Source of the DNA: Thermomicrobiales bacterium
GTDB lineage: Bacteria > Chloroflexota > Chloroflexia > Thermomicrobiales > UBA6265
Reading direction: 5' to 3'
DNA: 64,000 nt
NCBI GenBank assembly: GCA_050696075.1
Contig: JBOGUF010000149.1
Coordinates: 10,507-74,506, forward strand
The translations under genes were made by a program, and so were the position numbers. Below the pieces are notes generated by a model. It was not told where the DNA came from and did not search any database. It worked only from the letters and a program-made list of their open reading frames with translations. Numbering within the stretch: position 1 is the stretch's first letter; every line of letters starts with the position of its first letter. Positions 35,931-53,475 of the stretch are shown here, piece by piece.

Positions 35931-36024
35931 CCGTCGTCATGCTGAGGCAGCGAAGCATCCCCGCGCGCCGCGCCGACGGACCGGCTTCGCCGGGGGATGC
36001 TTCGGCTTCGCCTCAGCATGACGG
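35931..36024. repeat. REP/MITE-like nested palindrome, copy 2
   Basis: ccgtcgtcatgctgaggcagcgaagcatccccgcgcg...cgccgggggatgcttcggcttcgcctcagcatgacgg. Flanking ttagg..tttgca / gcaaac..ccctaa extensions reach about 35888-36047. Confidence 0.85.
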
Positions 36025-36975: not shown

Positions 36976-37132
36976 TGGTGGTGGCTCCTTGGGTCGGTGC
37001 GCGATGGCTTGTTCGCCATTATGGGGGATTGCGGCGCGCGGGGGAGTTTCCCGGCGTTGATGGCGTCCCCGACGTTGCAACGCCAGGCACAACCGACGAA
37101 GACCGACGCCGGGTTGAACCCCCCCGCTTAAC

Positions 37133-38002
37133 CTACGAAGCCCCTCCGGGACCGCGGACATCGCGGCCCGTGTGCAATCCCGACGGAGGTTGGTGGGTTG
37201 CGGAGTTTGGCACGGATGGTGGGGCGGGCCAGTCGAAGACGTCGAAGACTTGGGGGGCGAGGGCGGGTGGTGGCGGCAGGTAGCGATCGGCGCGGACCAT
37301 CGCTTCGACGTAGTCGTAGATGGCGACGACTTGCTCGTCGCCGGTGATTGAATGGATCCAGATCTGGTGGCCGGCGAAGAGGAGGAGGGCGACGTTGGAG
37401 AGGGCGCAGGGGCCGAGGCAGCCGCCAATAGAGAGGTGGACCTTGTGGCGGATGCGGCGGCGGGCCCATTCGCGGTGATAGAGGTCGGTGGGGACGGGGG
37501 CGTGGCCGCGTTCGGTGTGGCCGCAGCAGCAGCCGGTGGCGCAGACGAAGAGTTGCCCCGGACGGCGAAAGACGTTGATCGGCTCGCCGTCGCCACGCCA
37601 GACGATATTGCGCACGGCCGAGGTGTGCGGCGAGCGGGTGAGGCTGTCGATGGCGTCCGAGGTGGTTTCGTAGTGCTCGTGGTCGTCGTAGACGCCCGCG
37701 GCGTGCTCGGCGGTGCGGGCGTCGAGCTCGTCGGGGGTGATGAGATTCGTCTCGATCAGGAGGCGCTCGAAGGAGGCGAGCCAGCGCTCGTAGTAACCGG
37801 AGTCGTCGCCGTGCCCCTCGGCGGCGGCGATCTCGGCGGCGAGGCGGGCGCGGAAGTCGTCCCAGGGAAACTGCTCGGCGTCGCTGAGGGCGACGGCCAT
37901 GCCGAAGATGCGGCCCTCCCAGGGGGCTTCGAAGACCAACTCGCCGTTGCGGCGGGGGACGGCGAGGTCGTCGCCGAGCTCTTCGATACGGTGATCGGAC
38001 AT
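37133..38002 (-). CDS. nitrile hydratase accessory protein fused to a Cys-rich ferredoxin-like domain
   Basis: The N-terminal ~100 aa (ELVFEAPWEGRIFGMAVALSDAEQFPWDDFRARLAAEI...YYERWLASFERLL) match NHase activator proteins. The C-terminal half has FVCATGCCCGH and GGCLGPC. Confidence 0.7.
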   Translation of the reverse strand: MSDHRIEELGDDLAVPRRNGELVFEAPWEGRIFGMAVALSDAEQFPWDDFRARLAAEIAAAEGHGDDSGYYERWLASFERLLIETNLITPDELDARTAEHAAGVYDDHEHYETTSDAIDSLTRSPHTSAVRNIVWRGDGEPINVFRRPGQLFVCATGCCCGHTERGHAPVPTDLYHREWARRRIRHKVHLSIGGCLGPCALSNVALLLFAGHQIWIHSITGDEQVVAIYDYVEAMVRADRYLPPPPALAPQVFDVFDWPAPPSVPNSATHQPPSGLHTGRDVRGPGGAS

Positions 38003-38019
38003 CGCCGCGCTCCTTGCCG

Positions 38020-38628
38020 TCAGCCCGCCAGCCCGGAGGTTGCCGGCGCGGCCACCTTGGCGACGCCGATCATGGCGTCGCGGGTGACGAGCGCGGCGAG
38101 TTCTTCCTCGGTGAGGTGATCGGTTCCGGCGGGGCGTTCCGGGAGGATCATGTAGCGTTGGTCGGCGCTGCTGTCCCAGACGTGGATCGTGACGGTCTCG
38201 TCGATGTCCAGGCCGAACTCGGTAAGCACCTCGCGCGGCTCGATAACGGTGCGGGAGCGGTAGGCGAAGCTCTTGTACCAGGTCGGAGGCAGCCCGAGCA
38301 CCCTCCAGGGATAGCAGGAGCAGAGGGTACAGACCACGAGGTGGTGGTCGGTCGGCGTGTTCTCGATCACGACGAGGGGGGCGCCGCTGGGGATGCCGAA
38401 ATCGGTGATGGCCGCGCCGGCGTCGTGGAGCAGGCGCTGCTTGAAGGCGGGGTCGGACCAGGCGCGGGCGACGATGCGGGCGCCCATGAGCGGACCGATG
38501 TCCTGCTCGAACTTGCTGATTTGAGCGTCGACGGCCTCGGCGGAAATGAGTCCCTTTTCGATGAGGAGCGACTCGATGGCTTTGGTGCGCAACGCGACAT
38601 ACGGTTCCTGTTCCGGGTCGTACGGCAT
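38020..38628 (-). CDS. nthA: nitrile hydratase alpha subunit, cobalt type
   Basis: Metal-binding signature VCTLCSCYPW (the Thr/Tyr variant is cobalt-type). Start at the ATG at 38628 with an AAAGGA RBS. Confidence 0.92.
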   Translation of the reverse strand: MPYDPEQEPYVALRTKAIESLLIEKGLISAEAVDAQISKFEQDIGPLMGARIVARAWSDPAFKQRLLHDAGAAITDFGIPSGAPLVVIENTPTDHHLVVCTLCSCYPWRVLGLPPTWYKSFAYRSRTVIEPREVLTEFGLDIDETVTIHVWDSSADQRYMILPERPAGTDHLTEEELAALVTRDAMIGVAKVAAPATSGLAG

Positions 38629-38663
38629 GGCGCGCATCCTTTCGGCGGCTGTCTGGTCAGACG

Positions 38664-39332
38664 TCAGGACGAGGTGGGTTCGAGGTAACTCTCCCAGAGG
38701 TCGATGTTGAGCATTTGGCACGGCTCGGCGGGTTTGCCCCAGAGTTCGCGGCTATCGAAGCGGACGTTGTAGACGACTTGCGGGTCCGCGCCCAGGCCGT
38801 GGGCGTTGGTGTCGGGGAAGATTTCTGGACCATGGACGAGATGGATGACGCCCTGCTTGCCGCGAGCGTAGCGTGGGAGCCGGGTATGGCCTGTCGGATG
38901 GACGTTGCGGGTGACGACCGGGTCGCCGACTGAAAAGCGCGGCGTCAACCGCGGAAGCGGCGCGTGCGAGGTCTCGCGCGGCGACCACTGAGGGGGCGCG
39001 GCGGTGGGCCGAGGCAGGGGGGCGTCGGGATCGGAGCGAAGTCGTTCCGTTCTGGCGTCAAGTTCGTCGGCGGTGAGGATGCCCGCCTGGATCAGGTTGT
39101 CCTCGATGGTGGCGAGCCAGCGCTCGTAATAGGTCGAGCGCAGGTAGTGGGCGGGGTCCATGCGTTCGATGCCGTAGCGGAAGGCGTCGAGATTGAAGTA
39201 GCCCTGGCCGAGGGTGAGTTGCTGGAGGGCGAGGACGTGGGCTTCCCACGCGGCATGAAAGAGCGGCTCGTCCTTCTCCCGCGCGATCGGTCCAAAACCG
39301 TGCATCCCGCCGAGGTCGTGGACGCCGTTCAT
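38664..39332 (-). CDS. nthB: nitrile hydratase beta subunit
   Basis: Starts MNGVHDLGGMHGFGPI, the canonical NHase beta N-terminus. 222 aa. The upstream part of the track ORF belongs to a hydrolase relic. Confidence 0.92.
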   Translation of the reverse strand: MNGVHDLGGMHGFGPIAREKDEPLFHAAWEAHVLALQQLTLGQGYFNLDAFRYGIERMDPAHYLRSTYYERWLATIEDNLIQAGILTADELDARTERLRSDPDAPLPRPTAAPPQWSPRETSHAPLPRLTPRFSVGDPVVTRNVHPTGHTRLPRYARGKQGVIHLVHGPEIFPDTNAHGLGADPQVVYNVRFDSRELWGKPAEPCQMLNIDLWESYLEPTSS

Positions 39333-39396
39333 GGCTCGTCTCCCACCGTGTCGCGCCATCCGCATTGAGATCGTACCGCATCGGCGGCGTCCGGTG

Positions 39397-39632
39397 TCAG
39401 GCTTTCGATATTTCGTCTCGGAAAGAGAGGAGGGCGTCGGCGACGGCGCCGGGGTGGGTGTAGATGACGCCGTGGGGGGCGCGGGGAACATCGACGCGCT
39501 GAGCCCGTGAATGAGGAGGATGGGCGGCCCCGTCCATTGCGGTGGACCTGGCCAGACGCGGGCGTGCCAGCGGCGACCTTCGACGGTCTGCACACACCGG
39601 ACCGGACGTGGCGGGGAGTAATCGGTAGTCAT
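39397..39632 (-). pseudogene. alpha/beta hydrolase relic (N- and C-terminal pieces joined, frameshifted)
   Basis: One frame gives ..WTGPPILLIHGLSAS, a hydrolase N-terminus. Another gives QRVDVPRAPHGVIYTHPGAVADALLSFRDEISKA*, a hydrolase C-terminus. The catalytic core is missing. Confidence 0.55.
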
Positions 39633-40930: not shown

Positions 40931-41389
40931 CTACCGCGCCGGAAGCATGCCCAGAATACGTTCCAACTGCTTGCGGTCGTTCTCGACCAGATCCCGGATG
41001 CGCGCGCGAATCGTTGTCCCGCCGGTGACCTCCTGATCCCATTCGCCTTCTTCGAGTGGGCGCAGGAGGGCGAGTGTGACCTCGCGGGCGTAGCCGAACT
41101 GCGCGATCAGCACGGCGGTCGTGTCGTCTGAGTGCTCGGTGCCGACGATCGGCGCCTCGTCCCCGAAGATGTCGGGCATCGGCACACCGGTCACGTACTC
41201 CTTCAGCGCCTGCGAGAAGCGCAACTCATCATCACGCAAGCGGCGTACCACGTCGCGGACGGAGGCGCCGCCGGAGCCCACTTGGCGGGCCTGTGCCTCC
41301 GGCGCCTGGCGGACCTTGATGTTGAGCTCGCGAAAGGTGTTGATGAGCCCATCGATGAGCTCCTGGGATGATCCCGTCTGCACCGCCAT
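40931..41389 (-). CDS. DinB-like helical-bundle protein (tentative)
   Basis: About 152 aa with a helical pattern. Weak resemblance to DinB/YfiT-type proteins. Confidence 0.5.
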   Translation of the reverse strand: MAVQTGSSQELIDGLINTFRELNIKVRQAPEAQARQVGSGGASVRDVVRRLRDDELRFSQALKEYVTGVPMPDIFGDEAPIVGTEHSDDTTAVLIAQFGYAREVTLALLRPLEEGEWDQEVTGGTTIRARIRDLVENDRKQLERILGMLPAR

Positions 41390-41749
41390 GATTCCTCCCC
41401 CCGTTCCGCGCATTCCCCTGCCAGTTAATACGCACGACGCGGCGTTTGGTTTATCCGCGCCCCGTGCCGCGCCGGTCGCTTGCTACCGATTGTACGCACC
41501 AACGTGCTCGACGCCAACAACCGGGCGTACTATCGGGGCGGTCCATTCGTTCGGATGGGCGTGCGGGAGCGGTGGAAGGCGCGGGAATTGAGGGGGGTGG
41601 AACGAGTGAAGCGAGTGTTGAATGCCGATGACCCGGGGATAAATCCCCAGGCTCCACCGACGAAGCCCTTCCCAGGCTGTGCTGATCGCGCATTGAGTTT
41701 AATCCAGCGAGGCGGCAGCTACCGAGGACCCAGATGACACGGTGCTGCC

Positions 41750-42097
41750 ATGTACCGTGCCTATTACGCCGCCTTTAGCAGTGCGGCGGAGTATCTCCTG
41801 GCGAATACACCGAATCTTGTCCGAACCGCACTGACCCACGACACCGTCTGGCACGCGTTCCGCGACACGACCGATCGTGATCGCTGGACGATCTTCGACG
41901 ATGGCATGAATCTCAAACACCATAGGATCGACGCCGACTATTGGCGACCGATGGGGGTACGCCGGCCCCAATCCATTGTGCGCGACGTGCTCATTCGTTC
42001 GGCGCGGATTCTGCGCGTGCTTCAGCAAGTCCAGTCCTCGTTAGGATCAGATCGCCAGCAACTCCTCAACCTTGAACAGATCGGCGTTGAGGATTGA
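41750..42097 (+). pseudogene. degenerate paralog of the HEPN-like gene at 50106..50501
   Basis: Shares AAEYLLANTPNL..THD.VWH.F...RDRWTIFDDGMNLKHHRIDADYWRPM with the intact copy. It lacks the first ~40 aa; the upstream frame is broken by a frameshift and a stop. It reads through into the asd-tail copy. Confidence 0.6.
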
Positions 42098-42105
42098 GGG
42101 TCTGA
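42047..42105 (-). pseudogene. copy of the asd 3-prime end (fragment)
   Basis: Reverse translation gives PSILNADLFKVEELLAI*. The asd C-terminus is GASILNAELFRVEGLLPV*. Confidence 0.75.
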
Positions 42106-42253
42106 TGGAGTCGAGGACGGCGATGTGGTCGACGATCCGGTGGATTGGACAGGGACCGTGGGGCCGGCTTACAGGGCAATGTATGGGGGCGTGGAGCGGT
42201 TTGGTAAGATAGACGCAAAGTATCAGTGTATCGGTCGTGGCGAGGTGTGGGCG

Positions 42254-45200
42254 ATGGTGGCGCCGTTCGATGCGCCGGTCGTCTGCCCGATCCTCGTCGG
42301 GCGCGCACTGCACCTGGCCTCGCTTCAGCGCTGCATCAATCAGGTGCTGGGCGGGCAGGGCAAGCTCGTGCTCGTCGGGGGCGAGGCGGGCATCGGCAAG
42401 TCGCGGTTGGTGACCGAGGCGAGAACGCTTGCCGAAGGGCAAGGGATGCTCGGCTTGCAGGGACATGCCTTCGAGCCGGACCGCGCGGTGCCCTATGCGC
42501 CGCTGCTCGACCTGTTGCGGACCTTCGTCGCTTCCCTGGCGCCGGAGGAGGTACCACGGCAGCTTGGTCCGTCCGGTCCCGAGTTGACGAAGTTGGTCCC
42601 TGAGCTGTGCGGGTTGTTGCCCGCCGCGCGGCCGATGCCCGCGCTCGATCCCGCGCACGAGAAGCGTCGCCTTTTTCACGCGCTCGGGCAATTTCTTAGC
42701 CACCAGGCCGAAACGCGGCCGGTGCTGGTCGTCGTCGAAGACGTGCATTGGACCGACGACACGAGCCTGGAATGGTTGCGCTACCTGGCGGGGCGGATCG
42801 CCACGCGGCCGATACTCATCCTCCTGACCTTCCGCAACGACGAGGTGGGGGAGAGCCTGGCCCACACGCTGGCGGAACTGGACCGAGTGCGGGCCGTGGC
42901 CGAGCTGCGCTTGACGCGGTTATCTGCCGCCGACGCCCGCGCGATGGTCGACGCGATCGTTGCGGGACAGCGCCGGTTTCCCGGCGCCCTGATCAACGAG
43001 ATCTACGCTCTGACTGACGGCAACCCGTTCTTCATCGAAGAAGTCTTGCGCTCGGTGATTGCCGCGCGGTCAGACGACGGTGGCGGGGCAACGGCCGCGA
43101 TCGGTGGGCTGCCGATCCCCCGCGGCGTCGAGGATGCGATCCAACGGCGGGCGGCACAACTCAGCGAGGACGCCCGCCGGACCTTGACGCTGGCGGCCGT
43201 GACCGGGCGGCGCTTCGACTTCACGCTCTTGCAGGCGCTGACCCGGTGTGGCGCAGCCGACCTCCTGCGGCAGATCAAGGAACTGATCGCGGCGCAACTG
43301 GTGGTCGAGGAGTCGGACGAGCGGTTCGCCTTCCGCCACGCGCTGACGCGGCAAGCGATCGACGCCGGTCTCCTGGCGCGGGAGCGCCACGCGTTGCACC
43401 GGGAGGTGGCGGAGACGATCGAGCGAACCTACGCGGGCGCGCTCGATGAGTACGTCGCTGATCTGGCGCAGCACTTCTTCGAGGCGGGGGTGTGGGCGAA
43501 GGCGTTGGAGTACGCGCGGCGTGCCGGGGAAAACGCGCTCGGTTTGCATGCGCCGCGTGCTGCGGTCGAACACCTGACGCGCGCGCTGGAGGCAGAGACG
43601 CGGTTGGGACTGCCCGCAAGAGCGCGGACGCGGCGAGATCGCGGGCGAGCCTACGAGACGCTTGGCGACTTTGAGCGGGCACGCGCCGACGACGAGGCGG
43701 CGCTGGAGATTGCGCTAACGGCGGGCGATCGACGGGAGGAGTGGCAGGCGCTTCTGGCACTGGGGATGTTGTGGGCGGGCCGTGACTACGCGCGGACCGG
43801 CGGCTATTGGCGGCGCGCCCTGGACGTGGCGCGGGAGATGGGCGATGCCTCCGCGATTGCCCACAGCCTGAATCGGGTGGGCAATTGGCACACGAACATC
43901 GAAGAACCGCACGCCGCGCGGGCGTACCATCAGGAAGCACTCGCCATCTTTGAAACGGCCAACGACCGGCGCGGCATCGCCGAGACGTTGGATTTCCTGG
44001 GCATGGCGAGCTACCTCGGCGGCGACGTGCTCCCTGCCGCGCGCTACTACGAACGCGCCGTCGATCTGTTCGGCGAGTTGGACGACCGGCAAGGCGTGGT
44101 TTCCGGCCTGGCAATGATGACGATCGGGAGCGGAGACATCGCGGCCTATACCAAACCTTCACCCATCACGACCTTCGCCGAGCGGGCGCGGGCCGGCGAG
44201 CTGGGCGAGTTGGCGGTAGCGATCACGCGTGAAATCGACTGGCGTTCCGGCGAAGCGTATGCCTGTTTCACCACGGCGATCTGCGCCAGCGCGAAAGGGG
44301 AGTACGCGTTGGCGTTGCCGCGCGCTCACGAGGCCCTGGCCATTGCGCGGGAGATCGAGCACCGGCAGTGGACGACGTCGTCGCAAATCGGTCTGGGCAT
44401 CCTCTTTCTTGATTTGCTGGACTTGGCGCAGGCTCAGCGCCACCTAGAGCAGGCCGTGGCGCTGGCGAACGCCATCGGGTCGCTGTACTGGGTTCGTATG
44501 GGCTCGGGGTTTCTTGCCTCGACGCTCGTTGCGCGGCGTGATCTCGCGCGGGCGGAATCCGTCCTGCAGACAGCCCTCGGACCCGATGACCCGGCGCAGA
44601 CCCTGGCGCAACGACGGGTCTGGTATGCACGCGGTGAGCTTGCCCTTGCCCGCGGCGACGCGGACCTCGCCTTGCGGATCGTCGACCAATTGGTCGCGAC
44701 CGCCGATGACGGCGAGGACAGCAACGCGAGGAGTGTTCCCCATCTTGGACGGCCGCGGGGGGCGGCGCTGGCCGCGCTGGGGCGACCGGCGGAGGCGGAA
44801 GCCGCGTTCCAGGCGGCGCGCGTTGGGGCGGAAGCCCGCGGGGCACGGCCGCTGCTGTGGCGTGTCCACCTCGCCCTTGGCGATCTGTTCGAGACCCAGA
44901 CTCGCGGAGACGCCGCCGCGCGCGAGTTCGCGGCTGCCCGCGCCATCATCGAGGCGCTGGCCGTCGATATACCCGATGACGCCGTGCGGGCAACGTTTCT
45001 GCGGGGCGCGGCCGAGCTTCATCCACGGCTGAGGCCGCTCTCGCCGCACCAAGCCGCGAAGCGGGCGTTCGGTGGGCTGACCGAGCGCGAACGGGACGTG
45101 GCCGCTCTGATCGCGCGAGGCAAGTCGAACCGGGAGATCGCGGCGGACTTGTTCGTCAGCGAGCGGACCGTGGCCACCCACGTCGGCAATATCCTCGCCA

Positions 45201-45271
45201 AGTTAGGGCACTCCTCGCGGACCCAGGTTGCGCTCTGGGCGCAGGCAAAGGGGCTAACGGACCCAGAGTGA
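42254..45271 (+). CDS. large LuxR-family regulator (LAL/MalT-like: AAA ATPase + TPR + LuxR HTH)
   Basis: Walker A GGEAGIGKSRL, TPR repeats, and the C-terminal HTH LTERERDVAALIARGKSNREIAADLFVSERTVATHVGNILAKLG. Start set at the ATG at 42254 (GAGGTG RBS). The track start at 42125 lies in the asd-tail copy. Confidence 0.88.
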   Translation: MVAPFDAPVVCPILVGRALHLASLQRCINQVLGGQGKLVLVGGEAGIGKSRLVTEARTLAEGQGMLGLQGHAFEPDRAVPYAPLLDLLRTFVASLAPEEVPRQLGPSGPELTKLVPELCGLLPAARPMPALDPAHEKRRLFHALGQFLSHQAETRPVLVVVEDVHWTDDTSLEWLRYLAGRIATRPILILLTFRNDEVGESLAHTLAELDRVRAVAELRLTRLSAADARAMVDAIVAGQRRFPGALINEIYALTDGNPFFIEEVLRSVIAARSDDGGGATAAIGGLPIPRGVEDAIQRRAAQLSEDARRTLTLAAVTGRRFDFTLLQALTRCGAADLLRQIKELIAAQLVVEESDERFAFRHALTRQAIDAGLLARERHALHREVAETIERTYAGALDEYVADLAQHFFEAGVWAKALEYARRAGENALGLHAPRAAVEHLTRALEAETRLGLPARARTRRDRGRAYETLGDFERARADDEAALEIALTAGDRREEWQALLALGMLWAGRDYARTGGYWRRALDVAREMGDASAIAHSLNRVGNWHTNIEEPHAARAYHQEALAIFETANDRRGIAETLDFLGMASYLGGDVLPAARYYERAVDLFGELDDRQGVVSGLAMMTIGSGDIAAYTKPSPITTFAERARAGELGELAVAITREIDWRSGEAYACFTTAICASAKGEYALALPRAHEALAIAREIEHRQWTTSSQIGLGILFLDLLDLAQAQRHLEQAVALANAIGSLYWVRMGSGFLASTLVARRDLARAESVLQTALGPDDPAQTLAQRRVWYARGELALARGDADLALRIVDQLVATADDGEDSNARSVPHLGRPRGAALAALGRPAEAEAAFQAARVGAEARGARPLLWRVHLALGDLFETQTRGDAAAREFAAARAIIEALAVDIPDDAVRATFLRGAAELHPRLRPLSPHQAAKRAFGGLTERERDVAALIARGKSNREIAADLFVSERTVATHVGNILAKLGHSSRTQVALWAQAKGLTDPE

Positions 45272-45529
45272 TATCCCCGACATTTCGAACCGCCGCGAGG
45301 GATCGTCCCGTGCCTCTTACGTAGGCGAGATTCCTCTCTGCGATCGGAATGACGGAGTGGCGCTCTCCGCGTAGACCGGAATCTCCGTAACACCGTACCC
45401 ACCATCTCGTCATTTTTGCTGATCCCTCAGGACGACCACGCTTCTACTGTGGAAGGCGTCACCGTTGGCACGGCGGCCAGGCGCGGCGGAACGTTGGTCG
45501 GTGGGTGATGTGCGGAAAGGAGAGCGCCG

Positions 45530-45811
45530 ATGCCCAAGTTTCTGGTTGAGCGGAAGATCCCGAGTGCCGGGCGAATGAGTCTTGAGGAGTTGCGGGCCAC
45601 CGCCGCAACGTCGAACGACGTCGTCCATGACATGCAGCGGGACGGCACGCCGATCCAGTGGGTCCAGGGATTCGTCACGGACGACGCGATCTTCTGCGTC
45701 TATCTGGCGCCGGACGCGGAGGCGATTCGCGGCCACGCCAGCACCAGCGGGTTCCCGGCCGACCAGGTGATGGACGTGCGCGCCGTCATCGACCCGACGA
45801 CCGGGGAGTAG
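45530..45811 (+). CDS. DUF4242 domain-containing protein
   Basis: 93 aa. MPKFLVER...FCVYLAPDAEAIRGHASTSGFPADQV matches the DUF4242 pattern. GGAAAGGAG RBS. Confidence 0.7.
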   Translation: MPKFLVERKIPSAGRMSLEELRATAATSNDVVHDMQRDGTPIQWVQGFVTDDAIFCVYLAPDAEAIRGHASTSGFPADQVMDVRAVIDPTTGE

Positions 45812-45944
45812 TAGGTAGCAGAACCGATTTCTGAACAAAGGGGATCGCCATGCGACGCCCTACCGTTGCCCTCGAGACCGTCGTCCTCGGACGGATGGCT
45901 CGATGACGCACGCGGCACGCAATTGCAATGCAGGAGGAACTGCT

Positions 45945-47168
45945 GTGAATCATCGTCGCAGATTGACTCTCGCCGTCGTCGGCACGCTGGCATTGATACT
46001 GTTCGGACCGCTCTTTGCCGCGGCCCAAGATGCCACCCCGGATGCTTCCCAAGGCGGAGTGACGGTGGTAGCGAGCGGGCTGACCAATCCACGGGGTTTT
46101 GTGTGGGACGAGGACGGCACGATGTACCTCGCCCTGGCTGGTACCGGCCTTGATACCTCGGCCATGCCGGCGGGCACTGGTTCTCCCGCGGCAGAAAGCG
46201 AGGATGCCGGGGCCGGGACCGGCTCGCCGGTCGTCGAGGGCGTCGGCGAGGGCGGGACGACCGCCAGCCTGACCGCCGGGGTGATCACCATCGTCGACGG
46301 CTGCGCCATGCCGGTGGTGGAGGGTTGGCCCTCGGGCGGGCTGCCGGAGTTGGGGTGGGTGCTGGGCGTCTCCGACCTGGCGTTCCTGGACGGCCAACTC
46401 TATGCCCTGGTGGACCTGCACGGGGCCGGTCCGGTCGCGTCGCACGAGGAGGAGGTGCCGAACGGCGTCTACCGGGTCGAGGACGACGGCACGATGACGC
46501 TGGCGGCCGACATCTCCGCCTGGATCCAGGCCAACCCGGTCGCGGAGCCGCACGAGCCGCTCAGCCCGTATGGCGAGCCGTTCGCGATGATCGCCGGGGA
46601 CGGCATGCTCTGGATTGCCGAGGCAAACCATCAGCAGGTGCTGACCGTGACGCCGGACGGCACGATCGCCCGCGTGGCCGATCTCTCGGTGCTGGGCAAC
46701 GCGGCGCCGGACGCGCTGGCGCCGGCGCCGGGCGGCGGGGTCTACGTCGGGCTGCTGACGGCGCTGCCGTTTACCGATGGCACGGCGAAGGTGATCGAGG
46801 TGGCGCCCGATGGGACCGTCTCCGACATCTGGACCGGGTTGACGGCGGTGACGTCGATCGCGGTGGCGGACGACGGGACGCTCTACGCGCTGGAGATGGC
46901 GACGGGCAACAGCCCCGATCCGCCGTTCTATGCGCCCGGCACCGGGAAGGTCGTGCGCCAGACCGGGCTGGACAGCGCCGAGGAGGTCGTGAGCGGGCTG
47001 ACCTTCCCGGTCAAGATGAAGTTCGGGCCGGATGGCGGGCTCTACGTCGGTTCCCCCGCCGTCGGCGCGAACAGCGGCGAGGGGATGATTGTGCGGATCG
47101 ACGTGTCGTCGGCCAACGTGATCGCGATGGCGGATCAGGCCGCGACTGAGGATTCCTGCACGTCGTAA
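45945..47168 (+). CDS. ScyD/ScyE-family beta-propeller-like secreted protein
   Basis: GTG start after GGAGGA, followed by a signal peptide. GLTNPRGFVWDEDGTMYLA is typical of the ScyD/ScyE family. Confidence 0.7.
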   Translation: MNHRRRLTLAVVGTLALILFGPLFAAAQDATPDASQGGVTVVASGLTNPRGFVWDEDGTMYLALAGTGLDTSAMPAGTGSPAAESEDAGAGTGSPVVEGVGEGGTTASLTAGVITIVDGCAMPVVEGWPSGGLPELGWVLGVSDLAFLDGQLYALVDLHGAGPVASHEEEVPNGVYRVEDDGTMTLAADISAWIQANPVAEPHEPLSPYGEPFAMIAGDGMLWIAEANHQQVLTVTPDGTIARVADLSVLGNAAPDALAPAPGGGVYVGLLTALPFTDGTAKVIEVAPDGTVSDIWTGLTAVTSIAVADDGTLYALEMATGNSPDPPFYAPGTGKVVRQTGLDSAEEVVSGLTFPVKMKFGPDGGLYVGSPAVGANSGEGMIVRIDVSSANVIAMADQAATEDSCTS

Positions 47169-47376
47169 CGGCTTCTCCCGCGCTTCCGAGGTCGGGCCGC
47201 GGCACGGCCGCGTCGTCGGGCAAACGGTGATTGAGCGCAGCCACTGACGGCGGAGATTGACCACGGGCACGGCACCTCCGGCATGCGGTACGACACCGGC
47301 ATGTCGGAGGTGAAGCATCCAACCCGTTGAAGAACTCGCGGTCCGCGCGGACCGTCGAGCAGAGGAGGCTCTTGCC

Positions 47377-48549
47377 ATGTGTGAGACGGCTTCGAATCCG
47401 GCTGATGCCGGCGCCGTAGCGAAGATCCTCTCGTCGAAAGGTGCGGCGGCCTCTCGTTTCAGCGATTCAGAACGGGGCGCGATTGCGGCGCACCATCGGG
47501 CGCTCGCCGACAGGCGATGGACCGAGAGCCTGCATGCACGCAGCGAGGCCCTACATCATCATGCGCTGCTGCACGCCGTCCAGGACCAGGAAGTCGGGTC
47601 ACTTCGCAACGCCGTAACGTGGGGGCCTGTGTCATCACAGATCGTTGAGCAAGCGAGACCGCGGAACGCCAGAACCTCCGGCATTGGGCAATCGCCGATT
47701 GGATGCGACGCACATCGCACCTCTCCCCCTTATGCACTTGGCGACCCGCTGCAGGAAGACGTGGGGGTCGGTGCAACGGTGTTGGTGTCGGACGATCCCG
47801 TGGCCCCGGTGTTTGCGGGAGTGGTGCCGGATCTCAACAACCTGAAGACGTTCTCTCAGCTCGCATTGCCCAACGACGGCAAGCTCTCCTTGGGCGTCGG
47901 TCTCGGGAAAGTCCGCGTTGGTGCGAACGTCTACACGCTGCATCCACCCGCTATGGAGTTCCCACAGACCTTCCCAATACGAGGCGGGCTATTGGAGGTG
48001 ACTAACGCCAAAGCTAGCCTGGGCTACCACCTCGCTGTCCTGCCTGGTGCTCCGCTCCAGGTCGAGAAGCTGCTGAAGGTGGCAGTGGACATCATCGTCG
48101 GTGAGCAATCTCGACCATTTTACCTCGTCAATCCACCGGCGATGGGTCCGCCGATTCTGCAAGCGTTCGGCGTTGCCCATCTCGTTGTCTCCAGCTCGGA
48201 CGGGGGAGTAGCCGAAGACGACGTGGTCTTCCTTGAGCACAGGGAGGGAGCCTTCCAGATTTTCGGTACGCCGACCGTCATGCGCGAATTCAGCATCGCT
48301 CAGACGCTCACCCTGCTGCCGGGGACACGCTGGGTATACGTGGGGATCGAGGTGCGTCTAGAAGTACACCGGTGGTTTATTCTGCCGCCACCCCCAGATG
48401 TCGAAGACAGAGAGGGCTTCGTCATGATTGACCTGCGATCGCCCGCGCACAATACGCAGCCCATCCACCATCTCCTCGCACCTGGTGGCTCTGTGAACGT
48501 GCCACATATTGGCATGACGATCTGCCGTCCCGATGAGGTCTTCGCGTAG
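47377..48549 (+). CDS. hypothetical protein (orphan; extent uncertain)
   Basis: 390-codon open frame in an AT-richer segment. About 70 percent GC at third positions in the stretch I checked, which favours this strand. Opposite-strand ORFs are short and in mixed frames. Confidence 0.4.
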   Translation: MCETASNPADAGAVAKILSSKGAAASRFSDSERGAIAAHHRALADRRWTESLHARSEALHHHALLHAVQDQEVGSLRNAVTWGPVSSQIVEQARPRNARTSGIGQSPIGCDAHRTSPPYALGDPLQEDVGVGATVLVSDDPVAPVFAGVVPDLNNLKTFSQLALPNDGKLSLGVGLGKVRVGANVYTLHPPAMEFPQTFPIRGGLLEVTNAKASLGYHLAVLPGAPLQVEKLLKVAVDIIVGEQSRPFYLVNPPAMGPPILQAFGVAHLVVSSSDGGVAEDDVVFLEHREGAFQIFGTPTVMREFSIAQTLTLLPGTRWVYVGIEVRLEVHRWFILPPPPDVEDREGFVMIDLRSPAHNTQPIHHLLAPGGSVNVPHIGMTICRPDEVFA

Positions 48550-48630
48550 CGCGGGGCAGGGTGCGGAGAGCAGCAGGCGCCGCTGCTCTCCGCTCGTCTT
48601 GCCGATCAGAAGGCGGCCCTCTCGCTCCCC

Positions 48631-48690
48631 AAACCGGTAGCAGCCCTTCGACATGGTATTGTGGCCGAGGAGGACGTACTCGATGTCGAT
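48631..48690 (-). pseudogene. copy of the asd 3-prime end with internal ~46-nt deletion
   Basis: aaaccggtagcagcccttcgac matches the asd terminus. It is directly joined to atggtattgtggccgaggaggacgtactcgat, which matches asd 50558-50590 (VLLGHNT). Confidence 0.75.
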
Positions 48691-48760
48691 CGTACAACAT
48701 TGTACAATCGGTGCATTGCTGAACGAACGTATTGTCGTGCCCATGGTAAGGACGAGAGCG

Positions 48761-49078
48761 ATGAGCGAACGAAGCCCTGTAACACAGACGATGAAGGCGT
48801 CCGACGCGCGGCAGCAGTTCAGCGACGTCATCAATCGTGTGTATCGCAACCAGTCGCGCATCCTGATTGAACGTAGCGGCATCCCAGTCGCGGCGATCGT
48901 TCCCGCCGATGACCTGGCACGCTTGGATCGGCTGGAGCGGGAGCGGGCCGAGCGCTTCGCCGGCCTGAGGCGGATCAGCGACGCCTTCGCCGACGTGCCG
49001 GTTGACGAACTGGAACGCGAGGTTGAGCGAGCCGTCGTGGCCCGCCGGGAGCGGGCGCAGGCCGCTGCTGAAGCGTGA
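48761..49078 (+). CDS. Phd/YefM family antitoxin
   Basis: MKASDARQQFSDVINRVYRNQSRILIERSGIPVAAIVPADDLARL is a typical Phd/YefM N-domain. Start is uncertain (48761 or 48791). GTGA overlap with the PIN gene. Confidence 0.78.
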   Translation: MSERSPVTQTMKASDARQQFSDVINRVYRNQSRILIERSGIPVAAIVPADDLARLDRLERERAERFAGLRRISDAFADVPVDELEREVERAVVARRERAQAAAEA

Positions 49079-49515
49079 TTCGCGCGGTCCTCGACATCAA
49101 CGTCCTCCTCTCCGGCATCGTCGGCGTGGAGCGGGGGAGGAGTACCCCGGGTGGGCTCATGCGCGCCTGGCGGGCGCAACGCTTCGAACTCGTCACCTCG
49201 GAGCACATCCGAAGCAGTGTCCAGCGCAACCTGACCGAGGATCCATACTTTTCCCGGCGCCTCCCACCCGAGGAGGTAGCGGCCAATATTGTCTCCTTGG
49301 CCGTCGACGTGACACACGCCATCATTTCCGTCCAGGTGGTTGGGGTTGCAACCCACTCGGAAGACGACTTGGTGCTCTCCGCCGCCGCTAGCGCCGGCAT
49401 CGACTACCTCGTGACCGGCGATCACGGGCTACAAGGCGTCGGATCCTACCAAGGGGTGAAGATCGTCAACCCTCGCGCGTTCCTGGATGTCCTGACAGCG
49501 GAAGTAGCGCCATAA
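49075..49515 (+). CDS. PIN-domain toxin (TIGR00305-like)
   Basis: 146 aa. AVLDINVLLSG and DYLVTGD motifs. Confidence 0.82.
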   Translation: MIRAVLDINVLLSGIVGVERGRSTPGGLMRAWRAQRFELVTSEHIRSSVQRNLTEDPYFSRRLPPEEVAANIVSLAVDVTHAIISVQVVGVATHSEDDLVLSAAASAGIDYLVTGDHGLQGVGSYQGVKIVNPRAFLDVLTAEVAP

Positions 49516-49658
49516 GCCGCTCCGCCCCACGCCGCGAGTCAGCCGACGATCGGGTTGCGGCCAGGTACCGTAATGACGCCGGTAAAACGTCGTCTTAGCT
49601 CGGAACAAGCCACAAGTCCTTTGATTTGACCAGGGCAGGCACGGGAACTTGATGGTCC

Positions 49659-49718
49659 TTACACCGGCAAGAGCCCTTCGACCTTGAAGCGTTCGGCGTT
49701 GAGGATCGACGCCCCGCG
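49659..49718 (-). pseudogene. copy of the asd 3-prime end (fragment)
   Basis: Reverse translation gives RGASILNAERFKVEGLLPV* with its own TAA stop. Confidence 0.8.
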
Positions 49719-49780
49719 AACTGGGATGGATTTGGACGCCTTCGTGCTAATCTATCCATTGGCACCAGTTGGAGGAGCGC

Positions 49781-50113
49781 ATGAGGGCAACAGCGGCATA
49801 CAGTGCAACGGACTATCTGTTTCGCGACGAGGGAGCGGTCCGCGCCTATCTGGACGAGCATCCGGAGGTCATTCCGGCACTGGTCGAAGCCAGCCGACTG
49901 TTGCCGCACTCCTTTGGTATGAACGCTGCCATCGTGCTCGACGTATTGACCGATCCGGAGGAACCAGACGCTACGAACCTTTTTGCGCTCATACGGACCT
50001 CATTGGAGCCCAACGAGGCGCTCCCGTTGCTCGACGACTTCAACGAGCGTTGGTGGCGCCCCGTCTCCGCGACCTTCGACGCCGATGTCCATTTCGGCCT
50101 CGACTATGTCTGA
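49781..50113 (+). CDS. hypothetical protein, putative partner of the HEPN-like protein
   Basis: The ATG at 49781 follows GGAGGAG. 110 aa. 8-nt overlap with the downstream gene, consistent with a two-gene module. Confidence 0.6.
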   Translation: MRATAAYSATDYLFRDEGAVRAYLDEHPEVIPALVEASRLLPHSFGMNAAIVLDVLTDPEEPDATNLFALIRTSLEPNEALPLLDDFNERWWRPVSATFDADVHFGLDYV

Positions 50114-50501
50114 GCCGTTCGAATGGCGGCATCTCCTTGACCTTGCTCTGGAACTCGCACAGCACGCAGATGACGAGACTCGACTGCGAACGGCGGTCAG
50201 TCGCGCCTATGACGCCGCTTATTGCAGCGCGGCAGAATATGTGCTGGCGAATACGCCGAACCTGAAACGCACAGACCTCACACATGACGCTGTTTGGCAT
50301 GTGTTCCGGACTCCAAGCAACCGCGATCGCTGGACGATCTTCGACGACGGGATGAATCTCAAGCATCACCGTATCGACGCGGACTATTGGCGACCGATGC
50401 AGGCCCGTCGACCGGCATCGATTATGCGCGACGCGCTTTATCGATCCGCGCGGATCTTGAGATTGCTCGAAAGGCTGGAACCTGAGTCATCAGACCGGTA
50501 G
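50106..50501 (+). CDS. HEPN domain-like protein (putative toxin)
   Basis: 131 aa. SRAYDAAYCSAAEYVLAN..THDAVWHVF and NLKHHRIDADY resemble the HEPN (PF05168-type) helices and R..ADY motif. Its 3-prime end overlaps the convergent asd stop by 12 nt. Confidence 0.6.
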   Translation: MSEPFEWRHLLDLALELAQHADDETRLRTAVSRAYDAAYCSAAEYVLANTPNLKRTDLTHDAVWHVFRTPSNRDRWTIFDDGMNLKHHRIDADYWRPMQARRPASIMRDALYRSARILRLLERLEPESSDR

Positions 50502-51551
50502 CAGCCCCTCGACCCTGAAGAGTTCGGCGTTGAGGATGGAGGCGCCGGCGGCGCCGCGGATGGTGTTGTGGCCGAGGAGGACGTACTTGACGCCGAGGAT
50601 GGGGCAGGGGCGGACGCGGCCGACGACGGAGGCCATGCCGCGCTCCGCCTCACGGTCGAGGATCGGTTGGGGGCGGTTGCGCTCCTGACGGACGATGACC
50701 GGGCGCGCGGGGGCGCTGGGGAGACCGAGTTCCTGCGGCTTGCCGCGGAAGTTCTCGAAGGCCGCCACGACCTCCTCGGGCGAGGCGGGCTGCTTGAAAC
50801 GAACCGAGACCGCTTCGGTGTGGCCGTCGCGGACCGGGACGCGGTTGCAGGAGGCGCTGACGGTCACCGGGAGGAAGCTGAAGCCGCCGTCGGGTCCGGG
50901 GTAGGCGCCAAGCAGTTTTTGGGTCTCCTCGGCCATTTTCTCTTCTTCGCTGCTGATGAAGGGGACGACGTTGTCGATCATGTCGAGCGAGGGGACGCCG
51001 GGGTAGCCGGCGCCGGAGACGGCCTGCATCGTGGTGACCATCACCGCGTCGAGGCCGAAGGCGTCCTGGAGCGGTTTGAGGGTGAGGACCATGTGGATGG
51101 CGGAACAGTTCGGGTTGGTGGCGATGAAGCCGGACCAGCCGCGGTTGCGCTTTTGCAGCTCGATCGCCTGGACGTGGTCAGGGTTGACTTCGGGGATCAA
51201 GAGGGGGACGTCCGGCTCCATGCGGTGGGTCGAGGTGTTACTGAGGACGGCGTGCCCGTCTTTGGCCAGGCGCTGCTCGATTTCGCCGGCGACCTCGCCG
51301 GGGAGGGCGGAGAAGGCGATCGGGCTGTCGATCTGGTCGGCGTAGTCCTTGATGACCAAGTCGGCGGCGTCCGAGGGCATGAAAGCATCGAGCCGCCAGT
51401 CGGTCGCCTCGCGGTACGTCTTGCCGATCGAGCGTTCGGAAGCGACGAGTTCGGCCACCCGGAACCAAGGGTGGTTGTCAAGGAGTTGGACGAAACGCTG
51501 TCCAACGCTGCCTGTGGCGCCGAGCACGGCTACGGGAATGCGGTCTGCCAT
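50490..51551 (-). CDS. asd: aspartate-semialdehyde dehydrogenase
   Basis: 353 aa. VAVLGATGSVGQRF NAD(P) motif, active-site region NPNCSAI, and C-terminal LLGHNTIRGAAG. Confidence 0.93.
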   Translation of the reverse strand: MADRIPVAVLGATGSVGQRFVQLLDNHPWFRVAELVASERSIGKTYREATDWRLDAFMPSDAADLVIKDYADQIDSPIAFSALPGEVAGEIEQRLAKDGHAVLSNTSTHRMEPDVPLLIPEVNPDHVQAIELQKRNRGWSGFIATNPNCSAIHMVLTLKPLQDAFGLDAVMVTTMQAVSGAGYPGVPSLDMIDNVVPFISSEEEKMAEETQKLLGAYPGPDGGFSFLPVTVSASCNRVPVRDGHTEAVSVRFKQPASPEEVVAAFENFRGKPQELGLPSAPARPVIVRQERNRPQPILDREAERGMASVVGRVRPCPILGVKYVLLGHNTIRGAAGASILNAELFRVEGLLPV

Positions 51552-51574
51552 TGATTGCTCCTTTCGGTCGCAAC

Positions 51575-51604
51575 GGGTCAGGGGTCGGGAGTCAGGAGTC
51601 AGGG
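51575..51604. repeat. tandem heptamer array (GRGTCRG x4), left arm of the four-helix-bundle cassette
   Basis: gggtcaggggtcgggagtcaggagtcaggga. It contains the TGA stop (tca at 51599-51601) of the four-helix-bundle gene. Confidence 0.85.
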
Positions 51605-51973
51605 ACGACGTTCGAGCTTACGCTCAAGAGCGTTTCTTAGAGAAGCGAGTTGTTTGCCTAAGGGCACGACGATTTCCTTCACTTCCTCGAATTGTGCGGC
51701 CTTCAGATACCCAAATCGGACCGCTAATTCACATTGCGTTTCAACCTCCGCCAATGAACTACGAGCAATAGAGATGGCTTGCAAATACTCCTTCGTCGAT
51801 TCCCTGGTGTGTCCCTCCGCGACGTTGGATGGAATTGAAACGGCAGCTCGGCGCAGTTGATTTGCCAGACCATACAGTTCGTGACGAGGAAATGCTTCGG
51901 TTTGCTTGTGGATCATTTCCGCGAGGTCCATCCCTAGTTTCCACACCCGAAGATCCCGAAAGCTCTCAATCAC
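51599..51973 (-). CDS. four helix bundle protein (TIGR02436 / 23S rRNA intervening-sequence protein family)
   Basis: GTG start at 51973 after GAGAGGAG. FRDLRVWKLGMDLAEMIHKQTEAFPRHELYGLANQLRRAAVSIPSNVAEG is the family signature. The upstream part of the track ORF is a shadow. Confidence 0.85.
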   Translation of the reverse strand: MIESFRDLRVWKLGMDLAEMIHKQTEAFPRHELYGLANQLRRAAVSIPSNVAEGHTRESTKEYLQAISIARSSLAEVETQCELAVRFGYLKAAQFEEVKEIVVPLGKQLASLRNALERKLERRP

Positions 51974-51997
51974 CTTCGCTCCTCTCGTCGCCTTTGC

Positions 51998-52026
51998 CCC
52001 TGACTCCTGACTCCTGACCCCTGTCA
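51998..52026. repeat. tandem heptamer array (CCTGACY x4), right arm, inverse of 51575-51604
   Basis: cctgactcctgactcctgacccctgtca. Its reverse complement matches the left arm with 1-2 mismatches over ~24 bp. It contains the TGA stop of aspartate kinase (52024-52026). Confidence 0.85.
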
Positions 52027-53475
52027 CCCAACTCGTAATGATTCGGCCAGCATGTCGGAGCGGCGGGGGCGGCGGCCACGGGCGCTGGCGGTTTGGGGGC
52101 GGATGAAGGCGGTGTGGATCGCTACGACGGCGCGGTCGGCGGCGCGGGCCGGGACGGCGGCGACGAGGGCCGCGTTCGACATCTGCTGACTCGCGGCCAG
52201 GACGGGAACGCCGGCGCGGTGGAGGACGCCGAGCATGCGGGCCAGGGCAGCGGGTTTTTCGGCCGCGCCCTGGCCGATCGCGGCGACGACGGCGACCTCC
52301 TCGGTGCAACCGACTTCGGCCTCGAAGTCGCGGGCGCCAAGGACTTCCTCGATCCGGCACTGGGTGCGGCCACAGCCGCCGCCGGTGGCGGCGTCGACCA
52401 GGTAGGTCATGCGGCGGCGGGAGGAGGCTTGGGCGGCGAGCACGACTTCGATCCGGTCTTCGTGCAGCGCGCCGAAGACGGCCGAGGCGGCGCCGGAGAG
52501 GTCTTCCAGCTCCGGGACGTCGACGGTCAGAAGCAGCAGACCGTGCATAGCGGTGACCGCCTTGACTTGGTCGCCGGCCGCCTCGCGAGTGACGAGCGTG
52601 CCCGGCTCGGTGGGGGCGACGGTGGAAAGGATGCGGACCGGAATGCCGCGGGCGACGGCGGGACGGATGGTGCGGGGGTGGAGGACCTTGGCGCCGAAGT
52701 GGGCCAGCTCTTGGGCCTCGTCGAAGCTGACGCTCGGCACGACGCGGGCGTCGGGCACCTTGCGGGGGTCGGCGGAGAGGACGCCGGGCACGTCGGTCCA
52801 GATATGGATCTCGTCGGCGTCGAGGGCCGCGCCGAGCAGCGTTGCGCTGTAGTCGGAACCTCCGCGGCCGAGGGTGGTCGTCGTCCCGTCCGGGGCGAAG
52901 CCGATGAAGCCGGTCATGACGACGGTGAGCCCCTGGTCGAGGAGGGGGCGGACGACGGCGTTCGCCTGCTCGCGGGTGCGGACACGGTCGGGGCGAGCCG
53001 CGCCGAAGCGGTCGTCAGTGGCGATGACGCGGTCGGCGAAGAGGTGGACGGCCGGCGTGCCGCGCGATCTGAGCGTGGCGGCCATGAGGACGCTGAGTGC
53101 CTTTTCACCGGTGGCGCCGATGCGGTCCGAGTCGCGGTGGGAAAGGTCGCCGGCTTCGGCGACGTCGTTGAGGGCGTCGTCAAGCGTGGCGTGGAGTTGG
53201 TCGAGCTCGACGAGGGCGGCGAGGCGCTCCGCTTCGTCCTCGATGCCGTCTGCAATGCCGAGGTGCTTTTCGCGGATAGTGGCGGCGATGGCAGCGGCCT
53301 GGTCGCGCTCGCCGGTCGCGGCGGCGCGGGCAGCGTCGAGAAGCAGGTTAGTGACGCCGCTGGCGGCGGAGACAACCGCGGCGCGGGGTTGGGGTTGGGC
53401 CTCGGTAATCGCGGCGGCATCCCGGACGCGGTCGCGATTGCCGACCGAGGTGCCGCCGAATTTGAGGACGATCAT
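52024..53475 (-). CDS. ask: aspartate kinase
   Basis: 483 aa. N-terminal MIVLKFGGTSVG, a kinase core, and C-terminal ACT-like regions. Confidence 0.92.
   Translation of the reverse strand: MIVLKFGGTSVGNRDRVRDAAAITEAQPQPRAAVVSAASGVTNLLLDAARAAATGERDQAAAIAATIREKHLGIADGIEDEAERLAALVELDQLHATLDDALNDVAEAGDLSHRDSDRIGATGEKALSVLMAATLRSRGTPAVHLFADRVIATDDRFGAARPDRVRTREQANAVVRPLLDQGLTVVMTGFIGFAPDGTTTTLGRGGSDYSATLLGAALDADEIHIWTDVPGVLSADPRKVPDARVVPSVSFDEAQELAHFGAKVLHPRTIRPAVARGIPVRILSTVAPTEPGTLVTREAAGDQVKAVTAMHGLLLLTVDVPELEDLSGAASAVFGALHEDRIEVVLAAQASSRRRMTYLVDAATGGGCGRTQCRIEEVLGARDFEAEVGCTEEVAVVAAIGQGAAEKPAALARMLGVLHRAGVPVLAASQQMSNAALVAAVPARAADRAVVAIHTAFIRPQTASARGRRPRRSDMLAESLRVG

Follow-up and report, generated by a model that had tools for sequence, protein, structure and literature searches.

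The 64-kb window analyzed here comes from an uncultured Thermomicrobiales bacterium (Chloroflexota) and contains two target genes, asd (aspartate-semialdehyde dehydrogenase) and thyX, each followed by a tandem array of cargo genes separated by displaced copies of the target gene's own 3' end, here called tails. There are three displaced asd tails (T_A, T_B, and T_C), found by blastn and tblastn of the asd 3' end against the window, and four displaced thyX tails (t1 to t4). For both genes the tails are in frame, ungapped, and stop-terminated; their stop codons vary among TAG, TAA, and TGA, so they are separate alleles rather than recent local duplicates. About 74 kb of genomic DNA was covered, made up of the window and about 10 kb to its right, and all array open reading frames (ORFs) were scanned for Pfam and NCBIfam domains, with a sensitivity limit set by ORF-level hidden Markov models (HMMs). 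The asd comparison set has 61 loci, about 11 of which include thyX; a scan of 185,579 species genomes yielded 35 loci, and a DNA-pattern scan of Joint Genome Institute (JGI) metagenomes for the asd tail yielded 26, of which 25 are ordinary asd genes and one, L070, is an exception.

Table 1. Target genes, displaced tails, and cargo of the asd and thyX arrays, in window coordinates
Feature	Position	Strand	Basis or remark
asd (aspartate-semialdehyde dehydrogenase), target gene	50490-51551	-	Pfam Semialdhyde_dh and Semialdhyde_dhC
Core GTTCGGCGTTGAGGAT, encodes ILNAE, crossover interval	50522-50537	.	L002 comparison
U_D: short arm with possible decayed asd-like VRGAS, partner gene, HEPN gene, replacement asd tail	49707-50521	+	
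HEPN-like protein, 131 aa, divergent	50106-50501	+	Overlaps asd stop (50490) by 12 nt
Partner gene, 114 aa (another annotation: 110 aa from 49781)	49769-50113	+	8-nt overlap with HEPN start
T_C, displaced asd tail	49659-49706	-	Ortholog of L002 working tail
U_C cargo: Phd/YefM antitoxin 48761-49078, PIN_3 toxin 49075-49515	48761-49515	+	Pfam
T_B, displaced asd tail with body-side arm	48629-48689	-	L002 has undeleted copy
U_B cargo	42095-48628	+	Pfam
U_B LuxR-AAA-TPR regulator	42125-45271	+	Pfam
U_B SCO4226-like protein	45530-45811	+	Pfam
U_B beta-propeller protein	45903-47168	+	Pfam
U_B unknown 390-aa ORF	47377-48549	+	
T_A, outermost displaced asd tail	42047-42094, weak asd-like extension to 42135	-	blastn
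U_A truncated HEPN paralog	41750-42097	+	Adjoins chromosomal neighbor g40931
g40931, conserved chromosomal neighbor	40931-41413		
thyX, second target gene (elsewhere annotated 579 aa)	34132-35958	-	Pfam Thy1
5-kb unit adjoining thyX	29231-34131	.	Pfam
5-kb unit content: ECF sigma factor 29600-30196 (-), redoxin, DsbD_2-like protein, propeller protein 32977-34080			
thyX tail t4, non-canonical arm beyond nt 38 (GDPDRG for GERYCG)	29104-29230	-	
vapB (Rv0623-like, PSK_trans_fac) and vapC (PIN)	28412-28666, 28663-29058	+	Pfam; unit period 884 bp
thyX tail t3, 138 nt, canonical sequence	28220-28357	-	
3.6-kb unit: unknown ORFs and IS256/Mutator-family transposase	24686-28219	.	Pfam
IS256/Mutator-family transposase, inserted between two minus-strand ORFs	26011-27285	-	Pfam
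thyX tail t2, 75 nt	24611-24685	-	
UPF0175 antitoxin-like and DUF3368 (PIN-like) genes	23658-24510	+	Pfam; unit period 1008 bp
thyX tail t1, outermost	23603-23706	-	
Orphan vapB-like gene, outside t1	22944-23207		

At asd, tails T_A and T_C each match the gene end with E = 1.5e-10 against the whole window. T_B, which a prior sequence-only reading of this DNA had overlooked, matches in two halves (E = 2e-8 and 0.002): it fuses asd nt 1-24 to nt 71-107, a 46-nt internal deletion in which the core is gone. The core, GTTCGGCGTTGAGGAT, lies 33-48 nt from the stop codon, with further copies at 49691-49706 and at 42079-42094 (GATCGGCGTTGAGGAT), and is the sole stretch identical across all tail copies; the sequence-only reading had suggested looking for short conserved sequences at unit junctions. 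Beyond it, tails reach unit-specific distances into the gene body: about 48 nt (58 with the possible decayed VRGAS), about 89, 107, and 121 nt. The body-side arms of displaced tails are free of coding constraint; one carries RAGAGAS where asd has RGAAGAS. The repeat spacing of U_D, the unit next to asd, is 831 bp including one core copy. A palindrome, TGTACAACATTGTACA, lies upstream of the U_C cargo.

Cargo genes commonly run up to a tail, and the coordinates and stop-to-tail distances quoted in the sequence-only reading all hold in the ORF calls: the PIN_3 gene stops at 49515 and the adjacent T_C tail at 49659, vapC stops at 29058 and the t4 tail at 29104, the DUF3368 gene stops at 24510 with the t2 tail at 24611, and the propeller gene stops at 34080, with the thyX stop at 34132. 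That cargo lies on the strand opposite the target gene stands as a tendency, with about 20 ORFs converging on the target against four or five that do not; as a rule it fails, the count by transcription units being about 11 against 4 and the cargo of L070 being co-directed with asd.

The growth of the asd array can be followed by comparison with a sister genome, L002, whose asd is 95% identical to that of the window. In L002 the Phd/PIN_3 unit comes immediately after asd, with an undeleted older tail behind it, and exactly the 831-bp stretch 49707-50537 (partner gene, HEPN gene, tail, and one core copy) is missing. The L002 working tail has a TAA stop (CACCGGCAGC...) and reads TTACACCGGCAGCAACCCGTCGACCTTGAAGA; its counterpart in the window is the displaced tail T_C. 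The working tail of the window has a TGA stop (GACCGGTAGC...) and reads TCAGACCGGTAGCAGCCCCTCGACCCTGAAGA, with 6 of 32 positions different from the L002 tail, all of them distal to the core. Past the core, the asd bodies of the two genomes hardly differ; the exchange therefore falls within GTTCGGCGTTGAGGAT, and the asd end now in use in the window (the last 32 nt and the stop codon) came with the HEPN unit. The proposal that the element brings its own replacement gene end is borne out here, the end that works in L002 being the one displaced in the window. On this comparison U_D behaves as one discrete piece, whether gained by the window lineage or lost from L002. A search for population variants without the HEPN unit, made with the PIN_3 protein, gave a single genomic context. 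As to T_B, comparison with L002 (3999-4109) shows that its deletion takes out exactly the putative recombination core, so that this junction could no longer recombine.

In two other relatives (L005 and L008) and a metagenome contig (L048), the order lysC-asd-g40931-g40113-thyX-LuxR is contained within about 9 kb, and neither asd nor thyX has a tail copy there; the two arrays are therefore insertions specific to a lineage, placed between neighbors that are conserved. Among the other 58 or so asd loci, no tail copies were found apart from those in L002 and L070. Third-position GC content (GC3) is 0.58-0.81 in most array cargo units, compared with 0.85-0.88 in core genes.

The HEPN-type module is present at both ends of the asd array. 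Segments 41756-42135 (U_A) and 50202-50578 (U_D) align in one gapped blastn match of 382 columns with 72.8% identity (E = 1.7e-56), and spacing is conserved to within 3 nt. Identity is 74% in the HEPN coding sequence, 50% over the 22-nt junction, 78% in the asd tail, and 68% on the gene-body side; homology continues through the gene/tail junction into the asd-derived sequence. The idea that a tail and its convergent module travel as one unit is supported by the absence of U_D from L002 and by junctions elsewhere, in L037 and L072, described below. The U_A gene has lost about 43 N-terminal residues, its partner gene, and its own stop codon, and its ORF runs into T_A. It does overlap an asd tail, as had been pointed out, but only because that stop codon is lost; the intact relative at another locus, L001, ends ...QIQS*. 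Like U_A, the L001 module adjoins g40931 and lacks an older tail on that flank, and U_A, U_D, and L001 are mutually about equidistant (73-77% nucleotide identity). Either the first HEPN arrival left no detectable displaced tail, or it came by another route.

The assignment of the 131-aa protein (identical to NCBI entry ACRDJW_18240) to the HEPN type is supported at the profile level, by transitive homology only. By itself the protein has no Pfam or NCBIfam match. An exhaustive profile search gave 1,210 relatives of about 120 aa; 23 of 40 aligned relatives match PF05168 (HEPN), and the profile of these 40 matches a solved structure, PDB 9xbd ("HEPN domain-containing protein"), with E = 8e-8. 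Residues R28, R33, Y35, R89, D93, and Y94 are invariant in the family. The HEPN RNase motif Rx4-6H is absent: the family motif is R89-x3-D93-Y94 (RIDADY), with no histidine 4-6 positions after the arginine, and 9xbd has RNRSDY at this place. The partner protein matches no Pfam or NCBIfam family, and a single-sequence structure model of it was poor (predicted local distance difference test score 51) and too weak for a structure search. It accompanies the HEPN gene in L001 and at a further locus, L038, and from this gene arrangement a toxin-antitoxin pair is plausible. The sequence-only description of a HEPN-type toxin-antitoxin module is thus sustained for HEPN at the profile level, and for toxin-antitoxin function as a plausible reading of the pair. 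A search of a metagenome collection with the HEPN alignment found no relatives; the JGI contigs that carry two of them, the proteins P0002 and P0003, are apparently outside that collection.

Relatives of the module also occur beside an asd end elsewhere, as the sequence-only reading had anticipated. In the metagenome contig L037, a HEPN relative with 59% identity, truncated at its N-terminus, is met by a convergent asd 3' end 8 nt past its stop; this end reads YVLLGHNTIRGAAGA*ILNAELFKVEGLLPV*, and the nonsense codon inside it makes it probably a displaced copy. The contig of P0002, a HEPN relative 81% identical, has a 146-aa gene, the partner, the HEPN gene, and a convergent truncated 303-aa gene 3 nt away; judged from gene positions only, this is probably the PIN_3-partner-HEPN-asd order of the window, with an asd end abutted. 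In L038 (49% identical) partner and HEPN are followed by an aminotransferase gene, with no asd tail. At 3-131 (-) of L037, an ORF fragment (...LPDELWEIVEPLLP...GGRPR...) abuts the truncated HEPN gene and by eye is like the N-terminus of an IS5-family transposase, which would account for the truncation. A Thermomicrobiales contig, L054, has a DUF86/HepT-like HEPN gene (RNRIVHVY) and a small gene at 3134-3800, about 600 nt downstream of asd, with no tail copy. The variable base right after GAGGAT in each tail was considered as a junction discontinuity arguing for a fixed cleavage site, a reading that was rejected: the base occupies the wobble position of a serine codon (TCN), and in L037 the change is a nonsense one.

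An independent lineage has a tail-bounded unit of its own. In L070, a 135.7-kb contig whose asd is 75% identical to that of the window, a second asd tail lies 883 bp downstream of the first, and the interval between them holds two small overlapping ORFs that belong to no known family and are co-directed with asd, but no recombinase. The L070 tails are identical over 87 nt; six differences are confined to the 22 nt nearest the stop, distal to the same core position, and one further difference is near the far body-side end of the repeat. The L070 unit is unrelated to the window cargo but of the same size class.

The displaced thyX tails (E = 2e-15 to 5e-42) are again of unit-specific length, 75-138 nt, and are mosaics. 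Over nt 39-75, t1, t2, and t4 agree with each other at 32-35 of 37 positions but with thyX at only 28-29; among 120 ThyX homologs, 119 have a full-length C-terminus, and every one of these carries GERYCG and lacks the variant. Over nt 1-25 there is no t1/t2/t4 grouping. This pattern fits reciprocal exchange near TCCTCGAACTGGT, 26-38 nt from the stop, which is probably the thyX core, and the sequences fit a displaced copy that has its stop-proximal part from the older unit and its body-side part from the newer. A related arm in three units with unrelated cargo hints at a common attachment-site lineage, though gene conversion within the array could mimic this. The closest thyX relative, L072 (84% identity), has a PIN gene that runs toward the working thyX stop and ends 15 nt from it, and this PIN gene together with the working thyX end matches window vapC, the junction, and t4 in a single blastn match (28757-29226, E = 7e-36). 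In other taxa, a close vapC homolog (83% identity) precedes the rpsJ operon and has no thyX tail beside it; the vapBC payload is therefore promiscuous, an observation that bears on the payload and not on tails. Within the 3.6-kb unit, the minus-strand ORFs 25574-25951 and 27307-28155, which have no family match, flank the IS256 transposase and may be halves of one interrupted gene.

Four small intact units, 0.83-1.0 kb in size, consist of a two-gene module and its promoter only, with about 50-110 nt from the core to the first start codon. Three of the four carry type II toxin-antitoxin pairs, small overlapping genes on one strand with recognized toxin and antitoxin domains: vapB/vapC, Phd/YefM with PIN_3, and UPF0175 with DUF3368.

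Both arrays are probably stacks of horizontally acquired units that lack recombinase genes and resemble cis-mobilizable elements (CIMEs), serially recombined at the 3' ends of asd and thyX. Each unit would enter through a conservative, reciprocal crossover in a short conserved core close to where an essential gene ends. The incoming unit would carry its own last 10-15 codons and stop codon at one end, and would often bear at the other a degenerate stretch resembling the gene body; integration would join its tail to the resident gene body, the essential gene staying intact, and the previous tail would be pushed outward, still bound to the previous unit, with the consequence that each tail remains linked to cargo on its stop-codon side. 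The 831-bp unit of partner, HEPN, and asd tail would have entered the locus twice: the first arrival would be the truncated copy at the outer edge of the array, and the second the intact one that supplies the current asd end. A site-specific recombinase encoded outside the units would have moved them in trans, as with CIMEs or satellites, and an addiction-type payload would favor their retention.

In keeping with recombinase-less units, no ORF of either array has an integrase or resolvase match, the sole mobility gene being the IS256-family transposase. Several observations weigh against this reading. There is no integrase in the window as a whole or within 10 kb to its right, where only transporter and metabolic genes are found. 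An intact integrase-bearing element is absent at the 61 asd loci, and at thyX in the 11 or so that include it. IMG/VR pattern scans with the asd tail and the non-canonical thyX arm found no phage or island with such a site, and no circular or empty-site junction was observed in assembled sequence. The cores are without convincing dyad symmetry and coincide with the most conserved codons (ILNAE; QFEEL/PVW), and their conservation may come from protein constraint rather than recombinase recognition. There is no older tail on the far side of the outermost HEPN unit, the vapBC payload is also found away from thyX tails, and the 87-nt perfect repeat of L070 would also permit plain homologous recombination.

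Parts of this arrangement are familiar from other systems. Prophages that insert in the 3' end of a gene, among them e14 and phage 21 in icd, bring a diverged replacement for the last codons of a housekeeping gene and turn its old end into a pseudo-fragment. Each of these is a whole prophage inserted once, with its integrase alongside, whereas the window has stacked sub-kilobase units. Integron cassettes are compact one- or two-gene units without a recombinase, many of them toxin-antitoxin pairs in chromosomal integrons, with the recombination site at the unit end and the newest cassette beside the insertion point. The window arrays are alike in being built of compact recombinase-less units; they differ in that the repeat is the coding end of an essential gene and the units have their own promoters and mostly point toward the target. 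No IntI or other tyrosine recombinase was found near either array, no attI was found, and the repeats are not attC-like.

CIMEs of the Streptococcus ICESt1 family likewise have no integration genes, and new arrivals inserting at the gene-end site give tandem arrays with the gene intact (PMC5704250). Accretion of CIMEs and of integrative and conjugative or integrative and mobilizable elements shares with the window arrays gene-3'-end repeats, a lack of integration genes, tandem stacking, and an intact target. As in CIME arrays, the units are bounded by gene-3'-end repeats, and shorter (L002) or empty (L005, L008, and L048) sites occur in relatives; ORF-level HMM searches found no integrase remnants or related intact element at the site. 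The window arrays differ in having no related integrase-bearing element and no visible decay remnants in the small units, in units that are far smaller (0.83-1.0 kb) and hold a toxin-antitoxin-type pair only, in tails that are 74-88% identical, and in their targets, asd and thyX in Thermomicrobiales. Within the Chloroflexota, multiple ssrA islands of Dehalococcoides stand in tandem behind an essential gene present in one copy, with repeats of its 3' end as their borders; 15 of these islands lack an integration module, and a CIME-like nature was suggested for them (PMC3146451). There, the target is the transfer-messenger RNA (tmRNA) gene, the repeat is 20 bp, many islands have a six-gene integration module including the serine recombinase DsiB, and the cargo is reductive dehalogenase genes (PMC3146451). 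In the window the targets are protein-coding, 10-15 codons are replaced, and there is no DsiB-like gene or any resolvase or recombinase match. In the tycheposon arrays of Prochlorococcus, successive integrations at the same site push older elements out, leaving partial target copies and degenerate elements; tRNA genes are the targets, and tyrosine recombinases and replication modules are present (bioRxiv 10.1101/2020.12.28.424599). The outward-pushing order is the same in the window arrays, which have no tRNA target, tyrosine recombinase, or replication module; the window as a whole contains no tmRNA or tRNA gene. The arrays are probably a miniature form of known tandem accretion, set apart from the CIME, ssrA, and tycheposon arrays by their protein-coding targets, by the lack of an integrase or its remnant, and by their very small units.

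The textbook route to CIMEs (PMC5704250) would be decay: the units would be remnants of integrase-bearing elements or prophages, in which the toxin-antitoxin module beside the attachment site was spared, and the small units themselves would never have been mobile. Decay is visible in the arrays, in the truncated U_A, the orphan vapB-like gene, the IS256 insertion, and the T_B deletion; the larger units (3.6, 5, and 6.5 kb) are also without integrases; and toxin-antitoxin loci resist loss. This account has some claim to consideration but is on balance unlikely. Four two-gene units are intact, and the 50-110 nt between core and start codon contain no ORF or Pfam-detectable remnant; the entire difference between the window and L002 is the 831-bp HEPN unit; an unrelated unit of the same size class is present in L070; and the HEPN-tail junction is retained between proteins of 59-81% identity, which suggests that the module is at the attachment-site end by design. 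Trans mobilization of complete mini-units is favored over decay of large islands because of the small intact two-gene units and the unrelated unit of the same size in L070. Where the sequence-only reading had left toxin-antitoxin modules as either last survivors or payload, the compactness of the units favors payload.

Alternatively, no integrase would be needed at all if circles consisting of a unit and a gene 3' fragment, formed by looping-out between adjacent tails or by illegitimate excision, were re-inserted at the conserved gene end by single (Campbell-type) crossover through homologous or short-homology recombination, which would duplicate the fragment and leave the gene unharmed. Independent capture events of this kind fit the unit-specific tail lengths at both asd and thyX, a crossover in the longest identical block is what would be expected between diverged sequences, the 87 nt of perfect identity in L070 are enough for RecA, and no recombinase was found anywhere. 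In the window arrays, however, identical blocks are only 11-16 nt long, below the usual requirement of RecA, and overall identity among the tails is 74-88%. One non-canonical arm recurs in three thyX units whose cargo is unrelated, which also speaks against this explanation, with the reservation about gene conversion made above; homology-driven insertion is unlikely. The boldest reading would make the 0.8-1 kb units complete and undescribed mobile elements, toxin-antitoxin "tail cassettes" whose borrowed gene 3' end is their only recombination function. They would insert without a dedicated integrase, through host recombination, or by an unrecognized trans-acting enzyme, and would form integron-like, newest-first arrays; imprecise deletion of the tail in use would truncate the essential gene, giving a second layer of addiction. 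This is speculative and unlikely.

The HEPN and vapBC genes might also have been ordinary downstream neighbors of asd and thyX, displaced along with the old tail, with the second HEPN gene gained when a relative's asd 3' region replaced the resident one through allelic homologous exchange. Any downstream DNA would remain joined to a displaced tail; in U_A and L001 the HEPN gene adjoins g40931 with no older tail on that side, and in L072 the vapC gene is proximal to thyX. Against this, relatives in which asd and g40931 are adjacent show the HEPN module itself to be an insertion, U_D is bounded by the T_C core and its own diverged tail and so moved as module plus tail whatever the enzyme, and the equal distances among U_A, U_D, and L001 are also unfavorable. 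This explanation is quite improbable. The array structure is not an assembly artefact: the source is a metagenome-assembled genome and repeats can mislead assemblers, so that collapsed or chimeric strain variants might be suspected, but positions 31750-52097 recur in a second assembly of the same organism (L074) with 2 mismatches in 20,348 nt, a Logan contig (L075) covering 41058-45352, i.e., the oldest tail junction only, matches at 100%, the tails are diverged (74-88%) rather than near-identical, and another metagenome-assembled genome, L002, shares part of the array, which makes an artefact of assembly or binning a negligible prospect.

Some neighboring features are recorded here in their own right. 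A scan for promoters and terminators over 41300-51700 found no more than in shuffled controls. Three LuxR-AAA-TPR paralogs lie in the window, at 9042-11468, 20017-22578, and 42125-45271; the first two share segments of 81-93% nucleotide identity, and the third, the U_B cargo gene, has its start codon inside the asd-like arm. Between lysC and asd, at 51599-52360, is a gene of the 23S_rRNA_IVP family (four-helix bundle) that is only 66% identical in L002, against 92-95% for the flanking lysC and asd; asd directly follows lysC in other relatives, making this gene another small insertion in the same operon. Methyltransferase and nitrile hydratase alpha/beta genes at 36142-39632, between thyX and g40113, have no tblastn matches in L005 or L008, so the interval between the arrays also varies among relatives. 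At 55274-56377 is a gene for a bacterial type IB topoisomerase (Topoisom_I and Top1B_N_bact), a fold related to tyrosine recombinases; there is no evidence of a link to the arrays. A 39-nt repeat, CGTCATGCTGAGGCAKCGAAGCATCCCCGCGCG, occurs three times (13336-13374, 35935-35973 at the thyX 5' end, and 58698-58736), identical (GGCGTTAG)4 runs are found at 13290-13320 and 62872-62902, and similar GGCGGAAG runs at 21449 and 55156; together these may be a small dispersed repeat family.

If the units are decayed islands after all, the arrays are a clean case of textbook accretion at protein-coding genes, with toxin-antitoxin modules as the last survivors. The displaced tails provide a simple search signature, namely a stack of C-terminal fragments behind the gene, each in frame and with a stop codon of its own, which could serve to find such arrays and to order insertions in time. 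If the small units truly move as such, they would be among the smallest cargo-carrying integrative units known, and toxin-antitoxin modules could travel as complete packages, each mending the essential gene into which it inserts. Such behavior would tie together toxin-antitoxin mobility, essential-gene hot spots, and the formation of cassette arrays outside integrons, in a phylum that has had little study and whose tandem ssrA islands are already of importance.

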